This document shows, one piece after another, positions 1 to 11,456 of a stretch of 11,456 nt of DNA. A model generated the notes under the pieces. That model ran no database searches. It was not told where the DNA came from and saw only the letters and a list, made by a program, of their open reading frames with translations. The position numbers and the translations under genes are program-made. Source of the DNA: a virus (lineage: Duplodnaviria > Heunggongvirae > Uroviricota > Caudoviricetes); IMG/VR virus record IMGVR_UViG_2648501669_000018, positions 1 through 11,456 of that record; one strand, written 5' to 3'. Each line of letters opens with the position of its first letter. Position 1 is the first letter of the stretch.

Positions 1-34
1 AAATATAGGGGCAAATCCAGAAAGTTCACCAGCC

Positions 35-77
35 AACCGCAGCACGTTCTTGCATACGACGTGCTGCGGTTTTCTTT
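35..77 (+). terminator. Rho-independent terminator (perfect 11-bp stem + T-run) ending an upstream plus-strand transcript
   Basis: Stem 37-47 ccgcagcacgt pairs perfectly with 59-69 acgtgctgcgg (11-nt loop), followed directly by ttttcttt at 70-77. A degenerate copy of the same ~40-bp module sits exactly 2700 bp downstream at 2731-2770. Confidence 0.6.
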
Positions 78-228
78 ATGATTTATGCACAATGGACAAT
101 TTGAAATTATTGATGATTGTATGGTGCATCGTTTTCTGAACCTACACTGATTTTTTGGTATAGCCTTGCCTAGCCAGTCTTACCGGATCAAACTCTTCGC
201 TATTGCAATACTAACCAAAATCATCAAT

Positions 229-257
229 TTGACAGCGATTAACCAGAATAATAGTAT
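229..257 (+). promoter_or_regulatory. Candidate sigma70 promoter for the diguanylate cyclase gene
   Basis: TTGACA at 229-234 (consensus -35), 17-bp spacer, TAGTAT at 252-257 (-10-like), in an AT-rich leader about 70 bp upstream of the ATG at 330. Motif match only. Confidence 0.3.
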
Positions 258-329
258 ACTATCACCAGTAAGAAATTATCGTTATTTGTAGCGATACATA
301 TTATATATATATCATTCTCAGGTGCGTAC

Positions 330-1661
330 ATGATTATCAAGCAGGTACCTATAAAAATAAAAATCTTCATCTTTTTATTTTCATGCATCTCTATTATATT
401 TTTGTTACTGCATGAAAATAATGGAATATACATAACACAAACAACACAAATAAGTTATAGTGTTTTCATTATTGGGCTTTTTTTCATAAACCTGATGATT
501 TTTATTTTTCTATTGCTTTACTATGTTTCTAATCAGAGACAAAGTTATCTCTTAATTCTTTCATTCGCGTTTTTGAGCAACACGTATTATTTATTAGAAG
601 TGGCTATTATTTCTTTATCTCCGTTAGGTAACGATTTATCTACAATCTATCAGAAATCAAATGATATCGCAATATATTATCTATTCCGTCAGTTCAGCTT
701 TATATCTATAATCTTTCTGGCTGTTTATTCCACCAATGTTAAAAATAAAAGTGTTTTAGAAGATAAAAGAAACATAATAATTGTTGTTTTGTCAATATTA
801 ATTCTTTTTATTACTCCGTTTGTAGCAAAAAATCTAAGCAGTGACAATATAAAATATAGTCTTAATATTATACAATACTCGCTGAATCGTCATTTGTCGA
901 CGTGGAATATCGTGTACACCAAAATAATATCAGTATTTTGGCTTGTATTACTTATCAGCTCATGCATCAGCATACGTAATTACTCAAAAATATGGTTGTG
1001 TATAATACTTATTAGTATAGTGTCAGTATGCAATAATCTAATTTTATTGTATTTTATTGATAAATCCCATCCTGCATGGTACATGACAAAATTTCTTGAA
1101 TTGATATCAATGATTTATATCATTTCAACACTCATGTATTATGTTTTCAGGAAATTAAATCATGCTAATCATATGGCAATTCATGATCCACTAACGAATA
1201 CATACAATAGAAGATACTTTATTGACTCATTGAAGAATATATCAAAACACCATGATTTCTCAGTAATAATGTTAGATATTGACAATTTCAAAAGCATCAA
1301 TGACAAATGGGGGCATCATATGGGTGATCAAGTCATAGTAATGGTTACCAGAATAATAAAAAAATCCATCAGGAAAGAGGATATATTAGGGCGCTTAGGC
1401 GGTGAGGAGTTCGGTATTATCATTAAAGGTAATACTCAAAAGCTCTTGCTATCAATTGCAGAGCGAATCAGAAAAAACATTGAAGAGCAATGCTCGGAAA
1501 AATTATTATCGCATGGACCTGAGAAAATAACTGTCAGTATTGGTTGCTTTACTTCAAAAGAGAATAATCTCAGTCCATCTGAAATGTTAGTCAATGCCGA
1601 TAAAGCGTTATATCAAGCCAAAAGAACCGGAAAAAACAAGGTGATAACTCACTCAAAATAA
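330..1661 (+). CDS. Membrane-anchored GGDEF-domain diguanylate cyclase (c-di-GMP synthase); possibly the prophage-associated dgcX
   Basis: 443-aa ORF with SD-like AGGTG at 319-323, 6 nt before the ATG. N-terminal ~270 aa is very hydrophobic with multiple predicted TM helices. C-terminus is a canonical GGDEF domain: DPLTNTYNRRYF, MLDIDNFKSINDKWGHHMGD (Asp at the base-specifying position, so GTP/c-di-GMP type), active site GGEEF, and an RxxD I-site (RKED) 5 residues upstream of GGEEF. The gene is strikingly AT-rich compared with the flanking tail genes, indicating foreign origin. Confidence 0.9.
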   Translation: MIIKQVPIKIKIFIFLFSCISIIFLLLHENNGIYITQTTQISYSVFIIGLFFINLMIFIFLLLYYVSNQRQSYLLILSFAFLSNTYYLLEVAIISLSPLGNDLSTIYQKSNDIAIYYLFRQFSFISIIFLAVYSTNVKNKSVLEDKRNIIIVVLSILILFITPFVAKNLSSDNIKYSLNIIQYSLNRHLSTWNIVYTKIISVFWLVLLISSCISIRNYSKIWLCIILISIVSVCNNLILLYFIDKSHPAWYMTKFLELISMIYIISTLMYYVFRKLNHANHMAIHDPLTNTYNRRYFIDSLKNISKHHDFSVIMLDIDNFKSINDKWGHHMGDQVIVMVTRIIKKSIRKEDILGRLGGEEFGIIIKGNTQKLLLSIAERIRKNIEEQCSEKLLSHGPEKITVSIGCFTSKENNLSPSEMLVNADKALYQAKRTGKNKVITHSK

Positions 1662-1690
1662 ACACCTTTTTAAAATACAGCCCCAATAAA

Positions 1691-1723
1691 CTGCAGAATA
1701 TTATCCCATATAATATCCTGCAG
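1691..1723. terminator. Imperfect inverted repeat between convergent genes; possible weak bidirectional terminator
   Basis: ctgcagaatatta (1691-1703) and taatatcctgcag (1711-1723) form a 13-bp stem with one mismatch. It lies between the cyclase stop (1661) and the tfa-relic stop (1735). On the minus strand it is followed by TTTATT. The stem is AT-rich and so of low stability. Confidence 0.25.
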
Positions 1724-1734
1724 TTCGTAATGCA

Positions 1735-2004
1735 CTATTCGATAATGGGTCCTGTTGGCCATTCAATATCCGGTGCAGTTGTTGTATTAACACGGTTCAG
1801 CAACACCCGATACTTCTTCCAGGCTTCCAGCAACGAGTTTTCTTCCTCCGTTGCGATCTCCAGATCTACAGCATCCTGAAGTGGCGCAATATGCTCACTG
1901 AATTCCTGGATGTAGAACTATGTGGTGACGGTCTTCCAGCCATTCGGCTCCTGCTGTATCGAAGCATACCAGGCTATTTCAATATCGCTATGCTGCGGCA
2001 GCAT
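1735..2004 (-). pseudogene. tfa: Tail fibre assembly (tfa) gene remnant, 3' portion with in-frame TAG
   Basis: Minus-strand translation gives ...[54 protein letters not shown], matching the C-terminus of lambda-type Tfa as I recall it. The 60-codon block (1738-1917) has no start codon and is preceded by an in-frame TAG (1918-1920). A short ATG-initiated stretch (from 2004) upstream is in the same frame. It is about 90% identical at nucleotide level to the second copy at 2806-2915. Confidence 0.7.
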
Positions 2005-2012
2005 TTAACCCC

Positions 2013-2041
2013 TTGTAATTCATCACCATAATTGATTTAAT
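2013..2041 (+). promoter_or_regulatory. Candidate sigma70 promoter (extended -10) for the methyltransferase gene
   Basis: TTGTAA at 2013-2018, 17-bp spacer, TGaTTTAAT at 2033-2041 (TGn extended -10 plus TTTAAT). The ATG at 2061 lacks a clear Shine-Dalgarno, so the transcript may have a very short leader. Confidence 0.25.
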
Positions 2042-2060
2042 TCACAAACAAAACTATAAC

Positions 2061-2729
2061 ATGGTGAAATTAATGAAAAAAAACACAGATGATGGGGCTA
2101 AAATTTACACACCACTTACCCTAAAGCTTTATGACTGGTGGGTTTTGGGAGTATCAAATCGGCTTGCATGGGGATGTCCTACAAAGGAACACCTTCTTCC
2201 ACACTTTCTGGAACATTTAGGTAACAACCATCTGGATATTGGTGTTGGAACTGGGTTTTACCTTACTCACGTACCTGAGAGTAGTCTGATATCTTTAATG
2301 GATTTGAACGAAGCTAGCCTGAACGCGGCATCTACAAGGGCTGGGGAATCAAAAATTAAACATAAAATTAGCCATGATGTTTTTGAACCTTATCCCGCGG
2401 CGTTACATGGTCAATTTGATTCCATTTCCATGTTTTACCTTCTTCACTGCCTGCCTGGAAATATATCTACAAAAAGCTGTGTAATACGCAATGCGGCGCA
2501 GGCCTTAACTGACGATGGAACTCTATACGGAGCCACAATTCTTGGCGATGGAGTTGTGCACAATAGCTTCGGTCAAAAACTGATGCGCATTTACAATCAG
2601 AAAGGCATCTTTTCAAACACAAAAGATTCCGAAGAAGGCTTAACACATATACTCTCAGAGCATTTCGAGAATGTTAAAACCAAGGTTCAAGGTACTGTAG
2701 TAATGTTTTCCGCTTCAGGGAAAAAATAG
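2061..2729 (+). CDS. Putative class I SAM-dependent methyltransferase (cargo gene, substrate unknown)
   Basis: 222-aa ORF. Motif I-like glycine-rich loop LDIGVGTGFY, followed by an acidic motif (ISLMDLNE) and a hydrophobic FDSISMFYLLHCLPG stretch, consistent with a Rossmann-fold methyltransferase. No convincing SD; an alternative start is the ATG at 2073 (MKKNTDD). Intermediate AT content and orientation opposite to the tail genes. Confidence 0.5.
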   Translation: MVKLMKKNTDDGAKIYTPLTLKLYDWWVLGVSNRLAWGCPTKEHLLPHFLEHLGNNHLDIGVGTGFYLTHVPESSLISLMDLNEASLNAASTRAGESKIKHKISHDVFEPYPAALHGQFDSISMFYLLHCLPGNISTKSCVIRNAAQALTDDGTLYGATILGDGVVHNSFGQKLMRIYNQKGIFSNTKDSEEGLTHILSEHFENVKTKVQGTVVMFSASGKK

Positions 2730-2730
2730 C

Positions 2731-2770
2731 ATCCAACCGCAGCTCGCTCTTGCTTAAGACGTGCTGCGGC
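2731..2770 (+). repeat. Degenerate second copy of the terminator hairpin module seen at 31-70
   Basis: atccaaccgcagctcgctcttgcttaagacgtgctgcggc aligns base-for-base with 31-70. The stem is reduced to 7 bp plus 2 and the T-run is replaced by cataatcc. It starts 2 nt after the methyltransferase stop. Confidence 0.6.
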
Positions 2771-2783
2771 ATAATCCCAATGA

Positions 2784-2966
2784 TTACTCCCTGACAGGGT
2801 TCGTAGGCCACTCAATATCAGGTGCAGTTGATGTATCAACACGGTTCAGCAACACCCGATACTTCTTCCAGACTTCCAGCAACAAGGTTTCTTCCTCCGT
2901 TGCGATTTCCAGCTCAACAACAGTCTGAACGTACCAGGAACAGCCTCCTTCAGGGCTTGAAGGATA
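2784..2966 (-). pseudogene. tfa: Tail fibre assembly (tfa) remnant (C-terminal 60 codons, no start codon)
   Basis: Minus-strand translation, immediately after and in frame with the stf TGA: [60 protein letters not shown]. No ATG/GTG/TTG start. An orphan strong SD (GAAGGAGG, minus strand, about 2941-2948) is followed by no start codon, consistent with a destroyed tfa initiation region. Confidence 0.7.
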
Positions 2967-5900
2967 TCAATGTTCGCTTCCTGTTAACTGCCCGACAAGT
3001 GCAACCAGTTCGCTTACCTGATTTTCCAGAGTGGTGATCCGGGTGCCTGCTGTTGCCAGATTTTCACGTAACGTTGTATTTTCCTCTTCCAGCGCGGTAA
3101 CGCGATCATCTGTTTCACGGGCGACCTGAACAAGTAACCCCGTCACGGCGGAGTAGTCAACATTAAGATAGCGAGTTTCTTCGCGTAGCTCGTTGCCGTC
3201 AACGGTCGGACCTTGCAACTCTTCACCATAATGAGTAAACGATCCCACAGCTTCAGGTATCGCCTCCATTACTTCCTGTGCAATAACGCCAGCATAAGGC
3301 ATTCCGTTTTCCTTGAGCGTGTAGGTGTACCCGTTCATTTTACGGATTGCTTTCGTAGCGTCGCTGATAACGCGAATATCGTCTTTAAGGTCGCGGTCTG
3401 ATGACTGATTCAGCGTTGTGCAATTAATAGCGCCATTTACATCAAACAACTGGCCTGCTGATGTTTTTTGCGCATAAAACAGATACGCAGCAGACGTTCC
3501 AACCTCAAAAACGTTTTGTCGATCACTTGATCCCCATACTTTTGCGGCAAATGATAGTTCTGTATTACCTAAGTTCTGTAAAACAAAACGATTTCCAGTC
3601 CCTGTTTGTTTTGTAAGAGTTAAATCAACAGTTGAGTTAACCTCATCCTTGTTGATAGTGAGCGCCTGTGCTTTAGCCCCGTTAACAGCACCTGTTTTGA
3701 GTTGAACCGCGCCGTCATTACCATTTAACAGTATCTCAGCTCCGCTAAAGAAATTTTTTAGCGACAGCATCTTACTTACGCCGACTGATGAACCCAACGC
3801 CCACGCGAGAGAATTACCGGTGCTATCAAACCCACGTACAAAGCAATCCATTTTGCTATAGTCTGACGTGCTTCCAAGGACATCAATTCGCCCTCCGCCA
3901 GATTTTACCGGGTTAGATGTGGTTAATGACCTGACAGCAAGATCGGTAGATGAATTGAGATCGTCTACTGTTAGTAATTTCTTCCATTCCTGCGTCGTTC
4001 CATTTTCAATTGTTCTTCCCCAAAAACCGGAATTGCGGCCTCCGAACTGCACAGCATAATTTTTACTAAATTGAACATGAATGCCGCCAAGAACCATAGA
4101 ACCTGCCGGGCCGTTTGTACTGCCTGCAATTGGTATAAATTTATTAATGTTATCAGTATGCTGCGTGTTCCAGTCTCGTCCTGTTTTTGTAAGCAGTCCT
4201 AATGTCGTGTCGAGCGCTTCGGTTAAAGTAAGGTTTTTAAATTTAACTGCGCTACTTTCGCCAAGACTTAAGTTGTTTCGCGCATCTTCTACTGTTGTCG
4301 CACCTGTACCTCCTTGCCCAACAGCTAATGGCAACCAGCCAGTGCCATTATGACAACCCCACAAACCAGATTTGGAAACCTGTAAGCGTGGTGCGCCTGA
4401 AGAATACGTAGAATATACGTAAGTTGTTTCTTTTCCCTCTTCAACCCTTTCTGTTGATACATCTCTCTTCCATTCAGACCAGGTACCGCTTCCTCCTTCA
4501 TATATTCGTCTATAAGTAATTCCCGGATTATTATAAGGGTAGTACACCTGAACGCAGGAAGAAGCAGTGTTGGCTCTCGTTTGGAGCACTATTAAAGCGC
4601 CCGCCAGACCGATTGGGTAATTTAATTCTTCTGTTGCGTAAGCGCTCGTTGGTTGTTGATAGAAACCAGAATATTCACCGGTAAGGGTGTTTAGGTCAGT
4701 ATTAGCAAGGCCAGCTTTTTGCTCATACATTACCCGCAAGTTCGCACGTGCTTGCTCGATAGTTCTTCCACCAGTACCGCCCTGGGCTAAACCTAACGGA
4801 GACCATTGTCCAGAAGAAGAATCATAAACTCCCCAACTCCCGTTAGTATGGATTTCAAAGAAACGATCACCAGTTGGACCATACATACGAGTTGTTGATT
4901 CATTTTGACCAAAGCGGCTTAATTCATCTCTGCGGGTATGACGTATCCATTGCGGGCCAGAACTTTGGCTGTAAATGTACGAATACAATGATTTTGTATC
5001 TGAACCAACAAATAGACCGGAATATCTTTTTGTTGACACTTCTGATCTAACTATATAACCAGAAATAAGATTATCACCGGCACTAGACGCTACTGATGGA
5101 TAACCTTTCGCTGAGATGTAAATCCTGACAAATCCAATATAACCTGATGGCTCAACAGAGATATCAGTGCAGGTCATGGCAACTTCACCAAGACCGATAT
5201 TATCGCCAACAATTACTTGCGCCTGGTTGCGATAATTAAGTGCGTCCGCCGCAGATTTCGCCGCGTTTGTTTCACTGGATTTAGCATTAGTTTCGCTGGC
5301 TTTAGCGTTGGTTTCGCTGCTCTTTGCTGCTGCCTCGCTATTTTTCGCGTTGGTTTCTGATTTTTTGGCTGCTGTCGCGGAGTTTGCCGATGCAGTTTGT
5401 GAGTCTGCTGCCGCCTGTGCGCTGTTATCCGCATTCGTCTCAGACGTTTTTGCGGCCTTCGCGGAATTTCCTGCCGCCGTTGCCGAGGAAGCTGCACTAC
5501 TGGCACTTGATGATGCGTTCGTTTCTGATGATTTCGCTGCCTCTTTTGAGGCCGCCGCATCCCGGGCTGAGGTGGCAGCTTCTGACGCTTTCGTGGTCGC
5601 GGTGGATGCAGAAGTGGCTGCTGATTGTTGTGATGCTGCGGCATTCGTTTCTGACGTTTTCGCCGCACCGGCACTGGTGGCTGCCGCGCTTTTTGAGGAC
5701 TCTGCAGCGGCAGCACTTTTTGATGCTTCAGTAGCCTTTGTTGATGCCGTTCCTGCGCTGGAAGACGCTGACTGAGCCGACGTCGCGGCCTGCCCGGCTG
5801 ATGTGCTGGCTGCACGTGCTGAGCCTGTAGCATCAGTCGCATGGGTTGCCGCCTCACGGGCTGATGTGCTGGCATCGCTGGCTGACTTCTTCGCGGCTGC

Positions 5901-6272
5901 CGTGTTCTGTGCCACTGCGGACGCGTTACGCGCCACCTCTTCCACCATCAGTTCAAAGCGGCGCAGTGCCTCCGGACGGGCATCATCCTCCGTCATGGCA
6001 CCGAGAAAATCATTCAGCGTACCCGGTTGTGAGTCTTCATACACGGTGATGGTCCCGGCATGCGATGGCGGGAAGCCTTCCACCAACAGAATAACGCTGT
6101 ACTGACCGTACTCAACATCCATGCTGTAACGCCCGGCTTCATCCGGATTTTCAGATGCCACCGTGTTCACCACCACCGTGGTGCTGTTACGTTTTGCTTT
6201 CAGCTGGATTGTGCAGTTCTGTACCGGTTTACCTGCACCGTCTTTCAGTACACCTGAAATCTTTACTGCCAT
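2967..6272 (-). CDS. stf: Side tail fibre protein (lambda Stf-like N-terminus; C-terminal intramolecular chaperone domain)
   Basis: The N-terminus MAVKISGVLKDGAGKPVQNCTIQLKAKRNSTTVVVNTVASENPDEAGRYSMDVEYGQYSV... closely matches lambda Stf as I recall it. The ORF track starts at a GTG (6278); the ATG at 6272 (MAVKIS) is the likelier start. It contains a long Ala/Ser/Thr-rich repeat region, two GQGGTG fibre-repeat motifs and a C-terminal S74-type chaperone domain. Stop TGA at 2967-2969. Confidence 0.9.
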   Translation of the reverse strand: MAVKISGVLKDGAGKPVQNCTIQLKAKRNSTTVVVNTVASENPDEAGRYSMDVEYGQYSVILLVEGFPPSHAGTITVYEDSQPGTLNDFLGAMTEDDARPEALRRFELMVEEVARNASAVAQNTAAAKKSASDASTSAREAATHATDATGSARAASTSAGQAATSAQSASSSAGTASTKATEASKSAAAAESSKSAAATSAGAAKTSETNAAASQQSAATSASTATTKASEAATSARDAAASKEAAKSSETNASSSASSAASSATAAGNSAKAAKTSETNADNSAQAAADSQTASANSATAAKKSETNAKNSEAAAKSSETNAKASETNAKSSETNAAKSAADALNYRNQAQVIVGDNIGLGEVAMTCTDISVEPSGYIGFVRIYISAKGYPSVASSAGDNLISGYIVRSEVSTKRYSGLFVGSDTKSLYSYIYSQSSGPQWIRHTRRDELSRFGQNESTTRMYGPTGDRFFEIHTNGSWGVYDSSSGQWSPLGLAQGGTGGRTIEQARANLRVMYEQKAGLANTDLNTLTGEYSGFYQQPTSAYATEELNYPIGLAGALIVLQTRANTASSCVQVYYPYNNPGITYRRIYEGGSGTWSEWKRDVSTERVEEGKETTYVYSTYSSGAPRLQVSKSGLWGCHNGTGWLPLAVGQGGTGATTVEDARNNLSLGESSAVKFKNLTLTEALDTTLGLLTKTGRDWNTQHTDNINKFIPIAGSTNGPAGSMVLGGIHVQFSKNYAVQFGGRNSGFWGRTIENGTTQEWKKLLTVDDLNSSTDLAVRSLTTSNPVKSGGGRIDVLGSTSDYSKMDCFVRGFDSTGNSLAWALGSSVGVSKMLSLKNFFSGAEILLNGNDGAVQLKTGAVNGAKAQALTINKDEVNSTVDLTLTKQTGTGNRFVLQNLGNTELSFAAKVWGSSDRQNVFEVGTSAAYLFYAQKTSAGQLFDVNGAINCTTLNQSSDRDLKDDIRVISDATKAIRKMNGYTYTLKENGMPYAGVIAQEVMEAIPEAVGSFTHYGEELQGPTVDGNELREETRYLNVDYSAVTGLLVQVARETDDRVTALEEENTTLRENLATAGTRITTLENQVSELVALVGQLTGSEH
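2970..3401 (-). other. C-terminal intramolecular chaperone / auto-processing domain (peptidase S74-like) of the tail fibre
   Basis: Last ~144 aa: SDRDLKDDIRVISDATKAIRKMNGYTYTLKENG...GVIAQEVMEAIPEAV...coiled-coil tail. This matches the hallmark S-D-x-x-L-K cleavage motif and the GYxY / IAQE core of chaperone domains in endosialidase and T5 L-shaped fibre proteins (recalled from family knowledge). Confidence 0.7.
5216..5906 (-). repeat. Low-complexity Ala/Ser/Thr-rich repeat region inside stf (K-S/T-SETNA-type repeats)
   Basis: Protein segment of about residues 125-355 is almost entirely A/S/T/K/E with reiterated ...KSSETNA... units. The DNA shows reiterated gcgttggtttcgct-like units. This compositional bias creates several spurious overlapping ORFs on both strands. 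Confidence 0.75.
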
Positions 6273-6283
6273 ATTCACCCCAC

Positions 6284-6309
6284 AAAAAAGCCCGCCTGAA
6301 CCGGCGGGC
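6284..6309 (-). terminator. Rho-independent terminator downstream of lom (minus strand)
   Basis: Minus strand reads AGCCCGCC-ggttca-GGCGGGCT followed by TTTTTT (plus-strand aaaaaa at 6284-6289). The stf start codon lies only about 12 nt beyond the T-run. Confidence 0.6.
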
Positions 6310-6336
6310 TGTCATAACACTGTGTTACCTGGCTAA

Positions 6337-6936
6337 TCAGAATTTATAACCGACACCCATGATGAAACCGTCAGTGCGCCAGTCACCACTGCCGGAGCCT
6401 TCATAAGCAATATCAATGGCCACCGATTCGGTCGGGTTAAACTGCACGCCAGCTCCCCACGCCAGAGACGTGTTACTGTGGCGAGCGTCATCACTTCCGG
6501 TCAGCACATCGTGCGTTTTCCCCTTGTTGTCAGTTACGCGGAGATAATCCCCGGAGAAAGTCGACACACGGCTGTAAGCCACACCCGCCATCGCATACGC
6601 GCTGAACCATTCATTCACGCGTACAGACGGCCCCGCCATCACGCTGAACCAGCGGTTACGAACGGAGTCTTCATGCCAGCGGGTATCGCTGTAACGGGTC
6701 AGCTGGCGATTCTTGTCTCCTGCATAGCTGAATGACGTCACCAGCCCCAGTGTGTCCGTAAACTCATAACGGTATTTCACGTTAATCCCGTTAAGATCAT
6801 CGCTGCCGGGAACGTTCGTCGAGGCATGAAGATAGCCCGCGCTCAGCGTGGACTGATGTTCAGACGCCCATGCAGGCGCACCGGATACGGCCAGACAGAT
6901 GGCTGCGGACAAAATGGCGGCATAAAGTTTACGCAT
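6337..6936 (-). CDS. lom: Lom-family (Ail/Lom/PagC) outer membrane beta-barrel protein
   Basis: 199 aa with signal peptide MRKLYAAILSAAICLAVSGAPAWA. The core GINVKYRYE and the C-terminal AIDIAYEGSGSGDWRTDGFIMGVGYKF closely match lambda Lom as recalled. SD GAGAGG 6 nt upstream of the ATG. Position between J and stf is as in lambda. Confidence 0.9.
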   Translation of the reverse strand: MRKLYAAILSAAICLAVSGAPAWASEHQSTLSAGYLHASTNVPGSDDLNGINVKYRYEFTDTLGLVTSFSYAGDKNRQLTRYSDTRWHEDSVRNRWFSVMAGPSVRVNEWFSAYAMAGVAYSRVSTFSGDYLRVTDNKGKTHDVLTGSDDARHSNTSLAWGAGVQFNPTESVAIDIAYEGSGSGDWRTDGFIMGVGYKF

Positions 6937-6958
6937 AATTACCTCTCGCTTTTCTGCA

Positions 6959-6984
6959 ATAAAAAAGGCGTCATTTCTGACGCC
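6959..6984 (-). terminator. Rho-independent terminator between J and lom (minus strand)
   Basis: Minus strand: GGCGTCA-gaaa-TGACGCC followed by TTTTTTAT, located 19 nt after the J stop (7003-7005) and just upstream of the lom SD. Confidence 0.6.
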
Positions 6985-7002
6985 CGTTCTGGGTTATAAA
7001 AT

Positions 7003-10404
<3,402 letters not shown>

Positions 10405-10461
10405 TCACGCTCCATAAACGACAAAACCGCCCGCAGGCGGTTTCACATAAAACATTTTTCA

Positions 10462-11133
10462 TCAGCGACCAATCACCACAACCTGACCACCATCACCTTC
10501 ATCTGCCGTGCTGATCTCCTGAGAAACCACCCGCGACCCCACGCGCATTTCACCGTACAGAACAGGCAAAACATTGCCCTGGGCAACCATGTTATCCAGT
10601 GAGGAGAAATAGGTGTTCTGCTTACCGTTATCCGTTGTCTGTGTACGGGGAGTTCTGGCTTTCGGTGCCAGCATCTGCGCCACACCACCGAGCACCATAC
10701 TGGCACCGAGAGAAAACAGGATGCCGGTCATACCACCGGCCCCAATGGCTGCCCCCCATGCTGCAAGGGTGGCTCCGGCGGTAAAGAATGATCCGGCAAT
10801 GGCGGCAGCCCCCAGGACAATCTGGAATACGCCACCTGACTTGGCCCCGGCGACTCTGGGAACAATATGAATCACAGCGCCATCAGGCAGAGTCTCATGT
10901 AACTGCGCCGTTAACCCGGACGTGCTGACGTCCCGCCCGGCAATCCGTACCTGATACCAGCCGTCGCTCAGTTTCTGACGAAACGCCGGGAGCTGTGTGG
11001 CCAGTGCCCGGATGGCTTCAGCCCCCGTTTTCACACGAAGGTCGATGCGGCGACCAAATCGTTGTAAATCCCCGTAAAGGCAGATGCGCGCCATGCCCGG
11101 TGACGCCAGAGGGAGTGTGTGCGTCGCTGCCAT
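10462..11133 (-). CDS. I: Tail tip assembly protein I
   Basis: 223 aa starting MAATHTLPLASPGMARICLYGDLQRFGRR..., with a Gly/Ala-rich hydrophobic centre, matching lambda I in sequence and length. SD GAGAGG upstream. The 60-nt gap to J and ~103-nt overlap with K are as in lambda. Confidence 0.93.
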   Translation of the reverse strand: MAATHTLPLASPGMARICLYGDLQRFGRRIDLRVKTGAEAIRALATQLPAFRQKLSDGWYQVRIAGRDVSTSGLTAQLHETLPDGAVIHIVPRVAGAKSGGVFQIVLGAAAIAGSFFTAGATLAAWGAAIGAGGMTGILFSLGASMVLGGVAQMLAPKARTPRTQTTDNGKQNTYFSSLDNMVAQGNVLPVLYGEMRVGSRVVSQEISTADEGDGGQVVVIGR

Positions 11134-11456
11134 TTGTCTGTATACCTCTCTCGTTTGCTCAGTTGTTCAGGAATATGGTGCAGCAGCTCGCCATCACCAC
11201 AGTAAATGGCGGCATGATTCGGCACCGATGAACCAAAACAGCACAGCAGCACATCGCCCGGTTGTGCTGATGACAACGGCACCTGATACAGCCCTGTGGC
11301 CTCCAGATTATCCAGATAGAGATTCTGGCCGTTACGCCACCAGTCATCCTCACGATGAAAGTCCGGCATCTCAATCCCCGCCAGATGATAAGCATCCCGG
11401 AACAGTGTGTAACAGTCCGTCACACCGTGCTCAAAGCGCCGCCCGGTGAGATGCGG
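11031..11456 (-). CDS. K: Tail assembly protein K, 5'-truncated by the window edge (NlpC/P60-like C-terminal part)
   Basis: The reading frame stays open to the window end (...PHLTGRRFEHG-VTDCYTLFRDAYHLAGIEMPDF...). The track's start at 11423 is an internal GTG, not the true start. Contains a Cys...His motif typical of NlpC/P60-type tail assembly proteins. Overlaps I as in lambda. Confidence 0.85.
   Translation of the reverse strand, partial: PHLTGRRFEHGVTDCYTLFRDAYHLAGIEMPDFHREDDWWRNGQNLYLDNLEATGLYQVPLSSAQPGDVLLCCFGSSVPNHAAIYCGDGELLHHIPEQLSKRERYTDKWQRRTHSLWRHRAWRASAFTGIYNDLVAASTFV

Follow-up and report, generated by a model that had tools for sequence, protein, structure and literature searches.

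Does the GGDEF gene near the end of this lambda-like prophage encode a working diguanylate cyclase, does it belong to the phage or to the adjoining host chromosome, and where did it come from? The window analysed here, meaning the whole stretch of 11,456 nucleotides (nt), covers positions 1 to 11,456 of the IMG/VR record IMGVR_UViG_2648501669_000018 (Caudoviricetes). A sequence-only reading had proposed that the prophage carries a membrane-anchored cyclase, possibly dgcX, as cargo, and that the gene was recently acquired from a low-GC donor. Our analysis makes it very probable that dgcX is carried as cargo (a moron) by a lambda-like prophage and that its MASE4-anchored product, DgcX, makes c-di-GMP in the lysogen.

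Identity of the cyclase gene and its neighbours

The gene encodes a two-domain protein (Table 1). Its catalytic region matches the GGDEF models of both Pfam (PF00990, E = 9.5e-45, 152.7 bits versus a cut-off of 23.8) and NCBIfam (TIGR00254, E = 2.6e-48, 163.9 bits versus a cut-off of 37.4), and the N-terminal region matches MASE4 (Pfam PF17158, E = 1.8e-35, 122.9 bits versus a cut-off of 28.4). Seven to eight hydrophobic segments, all inside residues 5–273, were identified by hydropathy and, together with the MASE4 match, agree with the membrane anchoring proposed earlier. The RKED sequence of the I-site (RxxD) lies five residues N-terminal of the GGEEF A-site.

The suggestion that this gene might be dgcX was borne out by comparison with the published gene and protein. 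Over its full length, the protein is identical to the cyclase of Escherichia coli 55989 at 440 of 443 residues (99.3%), and none of the three substitutions (K4N, I194T and K245Q, window residue first) falls in the GGDEF domain. At the nucleotide level, window positions 20–1900 align to 55989 without gaps at 99.4% identity, and dgcX is 99.6% and 99.5% identical to the window in strains E24377A and SE11, respectively. Three published primers map onto the window (dgcX-d-62 at 268–303, u-18 at 321–340 and u-1310 at 1640–1670) with mismatches confined to engineered restriction sites, while a fourth (dgcX-d-412) falls ~65 nt to the left of the window start in 55989 and in MB53, the best-matching complete genome to the window, once its engineered EcoRI site is allowed for. 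The published catalytic mutants E359A and E360A coincide with both glutamates of the GGEEF motif (PMC10459773). On these matches, window positions 330–1661 are identified as dgcX, a gene already known since 2014 from outbreak E. coli O104:H4 and its relatives.

Richter et al. defined DgcX in 2014 in O104:H4 strain LB226692, the enteroaggregative strain (EAEC) 55989 and HUSEC041 and described it as a GGDEF protein in which the A- and I-sites are intact, with a hydrophobic N-terminal domain of ~270 residues; the gene was placed at the lambda attB beside lambdoid prophage DNA, and E24377A, H10407 and SE11 were named as further carriers (PMC4287979). DgcX of LB226692 and 55989 has the same MASE4–GGDEF architecture as the window protein, with GGEEF and RxxD at equal positions. 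The 443-residue cyclase of 55989 is located between tfa and ybhB, and its locus resembles the window-type locus both in the upstream region and in its position between tfa and the chromosomal flank. The two loci differ beyond the gene: in 55989 an intact tfa directly follows dgcX, whereas the window has a truncated tfa there, separated from the tail-fibre gene by a methyltransferase cassette and a further tfa remnant.

As described in the sequence-only reading, dgcX lies on the strand opposite to stf, lom, J and I. Among these neighbours, lom is a classical lambda moron. The cyclase gene had also been placed just beyond the tail-fibre genes; it does sit at that end of a lambda-like prophage, but two tfa remnants and the methyltransferase gene lie in between. 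The first of these remnants is annotated as a partial tfa in MB53 (RefSeq), and the methyltransferase matches phrog_2132 over its full length (E = 7.9e-157). The hairpin joint element occurs again directly after the methyltransferase ORF, followed by the second tfa remnant, and the interval from stf to att gives the impression of stacked cargo cassettes joined via hairpin and tfa homologies. A search with PADLOC defence models matched no family to DgcX or the adjoining methyltransferase.

A pattern scan for intrinsic terminators returned none in window positions 1–2100 because the hairpin loops exceed the limit of the scan; folding found two strong hairpins there. The first (36–77) is a terminator-like joint element that may terminate transcription or insulate the gene. 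The second (1689–1725) is not followed by a T-run, and the terminator label was dropped for it.

Table 1. Features of the window, with strand and the evidence for each
Feature	Position	Strand	Evidence or detail
G+C-rich hairpin (joint element)	36..77	+	14 bp, then TTTTCTTT; -24.9 kcal/mol, z -4.0
Sigma-70-like promoter candidate	229..257	+	TTGACA, 17-nt spacer, TAGTAT; 10/12 positions
Shine-Dalgarno-like AGGTG	320..324	+	5 nt before ATG, read from sequence
dgcX coding sequence	330..1661	+	ORF list; 443 aa plus stop
MASE4 integral-membrane sensor domain	447..1151	+	Residues 40-274, Pfam PF17158
GGDEF catalytic domain	1176..1640	+	Residues 283-437, Pfam PF00990
I-site RKED	1371..1382	+	Residues 348-351
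A-site GGEEF	1398..1412	+	Residues 357-361
Spacer hairpin between dgcX and tfa stops	1689..1725	+	-16 kcal/mol, z -5.3
tfa remnant, C-terminal ~59 aa	1735..1913	-	Translation matches 55989 Tfa C-terminus
Class I SAM-dependent methyltransferase, second cargo gene	2061..2729	+	Pfam methyltransferase domains
Second copy of hairpin joint element	2730..2769	+	85% identity to HK97 1763-1803
Second tfa remnant	2784..2921	-	Translation; MB53 annotation
Stf side tail fibre	2967..6278	-	phage_tail_N E 3e-72; C-terminal chaperone Peptidase_S74 E 1.7e-13
lom (Ail/Lom outer-membrane protein)	6337..6936	-	Pfam Ail_Lom E 3.2e-120
Tail tip attachment protein J	7003..10401	-	Six J-specific Pfam domains
Tail assembly protein I	10462..11133	-	Pfam Lambda_tail_I E 1.1e-28

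Base composition and origin of the dgcX lineage

The GC content of dgcX is 29.6% (31% at third codon positions, GC3), compared with 55.9% for J (GC3 67%), 55.5% for lom and 48.3% for stf. The very low GC content relative to J and stf on which the sequence-only reading had relied is therefore confirmed, and with flanks at ~50–56% and a GC profile that changes sharply at the edges of the dgcX unit (see below), the contrast is what recent import from a low-GC organism outside the Enterobacteriaceae could produce. However, the same composition runs through the whole clade: DgcX-clade alleles down to 51% protein identity all have a GC content of 29.6–31.8%, and those at 85, 67, 52 and 51% identity (29.7–31.8%) all occur in Escherichia. 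The nearest outgroups, from Citrobacter and the E. coli genes cdgI and dgcT, stand at 37–39% GC, and both K-12 paralogues (dgcT, 38.6%; cdgI, 38.5%) are AT-rich relative to the genome.

We also searched 5.8 billion proteins for relatives of DgcX. Among the 5747 hits, full-length relatives came only from Escherichia (85, 84, 81, 80, 67, 52 and 51% identity) and Citrobacter (41–43%, the yeaI/cdgI orthologue) and none came from a low-GC taxon, while more distant hits share the GGDEF domain alone. The 51–52% alleles lie between a hairpin copy and tfa plus tail-fibre genes, one at an E. coli uspF site and the other in E. albertii. Because all alleles of the clade are close to 30% GC and full-length relatives are limited to Escherichia and Citrobacter, these comparisons indicate that AT-richness is an old, stable trait of the dgcX lineage, so far seen only in Escherichia, and they point to no particular donor. 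Recent acquisition from a low-GC source, as claimed, is not supported, and we consider such an import improbable.

Position within the prophage and a recurring unit

MB53 and 55989 each have two copies of the lambda core GCTTTTTTATACTAA: one, with the B' arm, is located between dgcX and ybhB (attR), and the other, with the P' arm, between int and ybhC (attL). From attR to the start of the window, the sequence corresponds to the P arm and sib region found in lambda, HK97 and HK106, and dgcX is ~640 bp from attR. In HK97, the interval corresponding to the dgcX slot, between sib and tfa, measures only ~230 bp. By these alignments, dgcX falls within the prophage as bounded by its att sites. It occupies the interval from tfa to sib/attP, which corresponds to the b region of lambda, in agreement with the proposed status as prophage cargo. 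Neither att nor ybhB falls within the window, and the inside-prophage status and chromosomal site of its dgcX are deduced from the near-identical loci of MB53 and 55989. A search of the torS/torT prophage (L012) yielded no convincing att direct-repeat pair, and so inside-prophage status is demonstrated at the lambda-attB loci only.

With regard to its organization, dgcX resembles the lambda-type morons (lom, bor and genes of the b region): each is a self-contained cassette with promoter-like signals and flanking hairpins, located in a late or non-essential region and differing in composition from its neighbours, and dgcX would, like the others, be expressed from the prophage. The difference lies in the cargo, which is a second-messenger synthase for dgcX and a surface protein for lambda-type morons.

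The block from window position ~20/33 to ~1900 recurs at four different prophage sites. These are the lambda attB (55989 and MB53, with homology to 55989 ending at window position 1900), the Rac/uspF site (SE11, 99.1%), the argW–dsdC site (strain WP2-S18, 90.2%) and a site flanked by torT and a prophage whose tail genes are of the Baseplate_J type (87.4% nucleotide and 85% amino acid identity). The argW–dsdC site is also the dgcX site of Fec101 (PMC10459773). From its left edge, the unit consists of the hairpin with its T-run (36–77), the promoter region, dgcX, a 73-nt spacer with the second hairpin and the 3' end of the oppositely oriented tfa, with the remnant at 1735–1913 forming the right edge. 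Window positions 20–79 are 95% identical to HK97 DNA between sib and tfa, and the hairpin joint element was found upstream of every prophage-borne DgcX-clade allele examined. The 73-nt spacer is kept at all prophage sites and in a chromosomal allele with 67% identity. We infer that recombination at tfa and at the hairpin joint carries the unit from one prophage to another.

No phage genes surround the 67% allele (gene order cusS, nfrB, nfrA, ybcH, cyclase, argU and folD), which matches the window only over positions 318–1731, comprising the coding region and immediate flanks. The adjacent argU is the attachment site of DLP12-type prophages. A relative in such a purely chromosomal context, beside a prophage attachment site, would fit the alternative that dgcX is a chromosomal gene just outside the prophage that moves only via aberrant excision, and hitchhiking by specialized transduction has been proposed for dgcX on the grounds that lambdoid prophage DNA invariably adjoins it (PMC4287979). 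For the present arrangement, however, this alternative is contradicted: a canonical attR (P arm, core and B') separates dgcX from ybhB and a canonical attL lies by int in 55989 and MB53, the sequence upstream of dgcX has an intact sib and P arm, and the unit includes the hairpin and the tfa end at all four sites. Moreover, capture of the lambda-bio type would leave the captured DNA next to a hybrid att, on its int side, and not between tfa and the P arm. We therefore regard a location outside the prophage as highly improbable, and the internal cargo position of dgcX refines the earlier suggestion of specialized transduction (PMC4287979).

Regarding the more distant past, the DgcX lineage may have derived from, or seeded, the argU-linked cyclase that follows nfrB, nfrA and ybcH. 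In two reports, NfrB is described as a glycosyltransferase that is activated by c-di-GMP, with DgcJ as its local supplier; the glycan it makes is the receptor of phage N4 (PMC8669469, PMC8669472). Any connection of DgcX to NfrB is speculative; were DgcX to keep this partnership, NfrB would be the local target of the prophage, which would retune the surface glycan of the host and its susceptibility to other phages instead of simply raising biofilm formation. A broader joint reading, in which DgcX-clade cyclases are a dedicated cargo family for the tfa–att slot of Escherichia prophages, are swapped as a hairpin–promoter–dgcX–tfa unit, are tied to the argU-linked lineage and are partners of NfrB, is likewise speculative and in our judgement a long shot.

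Activity, expression and effects on the lysogen

The catalytic domain aligns to PleD of Caulobacter (PDB 1W25 / 2WB4) over 169 residues (E = 6e-25). We checked the metal, phosphate and guanine contacts of PleD (D327, K332, N335, D344, R366, E370, E371, K442 and R446), among which the sole change is R446, replaced by Lys (K435) in the window protein; residues kept relative to PleD are D316, K321, N324, D333, R348/D351, R355, G357–F361, R379 and K431. Asp333 occupies the position of PleD D344, the guanine-specifying Asp. Barring R446, the two proteins have A-site, I-site and guanine-binding residues in common, while their inputs differ: receiver domains in PleD and the membrane MASE4 domain in the window protein. 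Domain matches, motifs and residue mapping all agree with the GGDEF cyclase originally described, with its GGEEF and RxxD motifs and an Asp at the GTP-specifying position, and on this evidence the window gene is predicted to be an intact, prophage-borne gene for a membrane-anchored, I-site-bearing diguanylate cyclase.

Two E. coli K-12 proteins, DgcT (YcdT) and CdgI (YeaI), share the MASE4–GGDEF architecture at 35–37% identity to DgcX, but are encoded by chromosomal core-genome genes and not by a prophage. Like DgcX, DgcT has GGEEF and the RxxD I-site, whereas the A-site of CdgI (37% identity) is degenerate and lacks a GG(D/E)EF motif. In addition, the product of a GGDEF enzyme can switch when the equivalent of PleD D344 becomes Ser, as in the Hypr enzymes. 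While these precedents allow for a DgcX that is no active diguanylate cyclase but either a degenerate c-di-GMP receptor like CdgI or a Hypr-type GGDEF enzyme making cGAMP, both are extremely improbable: the receptor is rejected on residue evidence by the intact GGEEF and kept contacts, the cGAMP synthase by Asp333 in place of Ser or Thr at the D344 position, and published GGEAF and GGAAF mutants lose the phenotype (PMC10459773).

The effects on biofilm and motility that had been proposed for this gene are already published for DgcX (PMC4287979, PMC10459773). Overexpression of DgcX leads to csgD-independent cellulose production and represses swimming motility, and both effects vanish in the GGEAF and GGAAF mutants, which is genetic evidence from a 99%-identical protein; deletion of dgcX in Fec101 made cells slightly more motile and caused only a minor change in biofilm (PMC10459773). 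In the mechanism we propose for active DgcX, the seven to eight helices of MASE4 would anchor the protein in the inner membrane and might sense a signal, the cytoplasmic GGDEF domain would dimerise and condense two GTP molecules into c-di-GMP, and the RxxD I-site would provide feedback inhibition by the product. The extra c-di-GMP in the lysogen would then result in more cellulose, higher levels of CsgD and curli depending on the strain, and less flagellar motility.

Transcription of dgcX would proceed from its own promoter, away from the att end and convergent with the late tail genes. The promoter-like and Shine-Dalgarno signals noted earlier are present (Table 1). The promoter candidate, whose -35 hexamer starts at position 229, is the best match in window positions 1–2100, a region in which the number of promoter-like matches (14, versus 12 ± 4.3 expected) is not above chance in AT-rich DNA. 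It falls within the -412 to +18 fragment of a published dgcX::lacZ reporter that gave the highest expression among E. coli DGC gene reporters and depended on RpoD and RpoS; dgcT was reported to be very weakly expressed, whereas dgcX was the most strongly expressed DGC gene (PMC4287979). The candidate at 229–257 is the putative promoter of dgcX. Antiterminated leftward transcripts could also enter the gene in lytic growth, since its orientation equals that of transcription from int to att in the excised phage.

To place the gene in a wider context, we identified dgcX in 771 of 5426 complete E. coli genomes (14%), including 670 at a minimum of 99% identity and 86 at 90–95%, and nearly all copies were chromosomal. 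This agrees with a 2014 survey that found the gene in 9 of 61 genomes (PMC4287979). The arrangement of dgcX plus methyltransferase seen in the window was found in 190 genomes. None of 50,697 deposited phage genomes contained dgcX, with no match by megablast and only GGDEF-domain matches below 40% identity by tblastn. The 16 dgcX hits in IMG/VR are short predicted viral fragments, and 14 of them have contig IDs that look like isolate-genome IDs. Phage-borne GGDEF proteins are already known in kind, and PHROGs contains seven GGDEF-containing phage families, none with MASE4.

Two carrier prophages were examined for completeness and both are defective. In 55989, the large terminase gene and rusA are frameshifted; MB53 lacks the region for immunity, replication and lysis and has copies of IS1 and IS3. 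Because the deposited phages lack dgcX and both examined carriers are defective, carriage in virions is unsupported and delivery by virions today is unproven, and retention of dgcX by the host is at least as likely as present-day delivery.

DgcX is considered a contributor to adherence and biofilm in enteroaggregative and O104:H4 E. coli, and recognising dgcX in a genome is a useful annotation of an already-known gene. Our analysis refines this picture with an internal cargo position in the prophage, a ~1.9-kb unit distributed among at least four sites, a prevalence of ~14% and AT-richness of old standing. Carrier prophages are often found in a decayed state, a sign that dgcX is being kept by the host and not delivered by phages on an ongoing basis.

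Apparent cassettes between stf and the attachment site

The interval from the side tail fibre gene (stf) to the prophage attachment site (att) looks like a set of cassettes stacked by past recombination, and it includes a second cargo gene and another copy of the hairpin joint, the terminator-like element at the left edge of the conserved dgcX unit. The methyltransferase is also present without dgcX in some genomes (matches H45, H55 and H67). Because the side tail fibre ends in its own Peptidase_S74 chaperone, a separate tail-fibre assembly protein (Tfa) should be dispensable for it, and the decay of both tfa genes to remnants is consistent with such independence. The fibre gene also has a long repetitive stretch rich in Ala, Ser and Thr codons at nt ~5200-5900, where GC content rises to ~60%.

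Features of the stf-to-att interval in the window
Feature	Position (nt)	Strand	Family
Tail-fibre assembly gene remnant, flanking methyltransferase	1735-1913	-	
Class I SAM-dependent methyltransferase, second cargo gene	2061-2729	+	phrog_2132
Hairpin joint, second copy, after methyltransferase	2730-2769		
Tail-fibre assembly gene remnant, flanking methyltransferase	2784-2921	-	
Side tail fibre, C-terminal Peptidase_S74 intramolecular chaperone domain	2967-6278	-	

An Rfam match to IS009 (RF02111; 1778-1981, minus strand; 129.9 bits, above the gathering score of 117) overlaps the truncated tfa remnant and crosses position ~1900, the limit of homology to 55989. This match may represent nothing other than tfa-derived sequence that Rfam catalogued as a candidate small RNA.

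Base composition, expression and carriers of dgcX

The cyclase gene dgcX (330-1661) has a GC content of 27-30%, at which binding and silencing by H-NS would be expected; in contrast, dgcX was the most strongly expressed E. coli diguanylate cyclase reporter (PMC4287979). The dgcX-carrying prophages of E. coli 55989 and MB53 are both defective: that of 55989 has frameshifts in the large terminase and rusA (L003 32121-34045 and 25462-25823), and that of MB53 (L002 9125-13921) no longer has an immunity, replication and lysis region and contains IS1 and IS3 copies.

Related cyclase loci

A cyclase with 67% identity to DgcX lies in phage-free surroundings at locus L007 (CP057162.1, 8001-9335), and likewise at L006 and L008, with homology to the window confined to 318-1731. 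It is directly preceded by nfrB-nfrA-ybcH and followed by the tRNA-Arg(TCT) gene argU and then folD. The argU gene is a prophage attachment site. The gene may have had its ancestral location here; alternatively, the locus may be a stranded prophage remnant. Of its neighbours, NfrB is described (PMC8669469, PMC8669472) as the N4 phage receptor glycan synthase, activated by c-di-GMP.

At the E. albertii locus L014, a gene with a metallo-beta-lactamase fold (9533-10336) lies between a DgcX-like allele (52%) and tfa, and faintly matches the anti-Pycsar nuclease Apyc1. A single cargo slot here would hold both a cyclic-nucleotide synthase and a candidate cyclic-nucleotide hydrolase.
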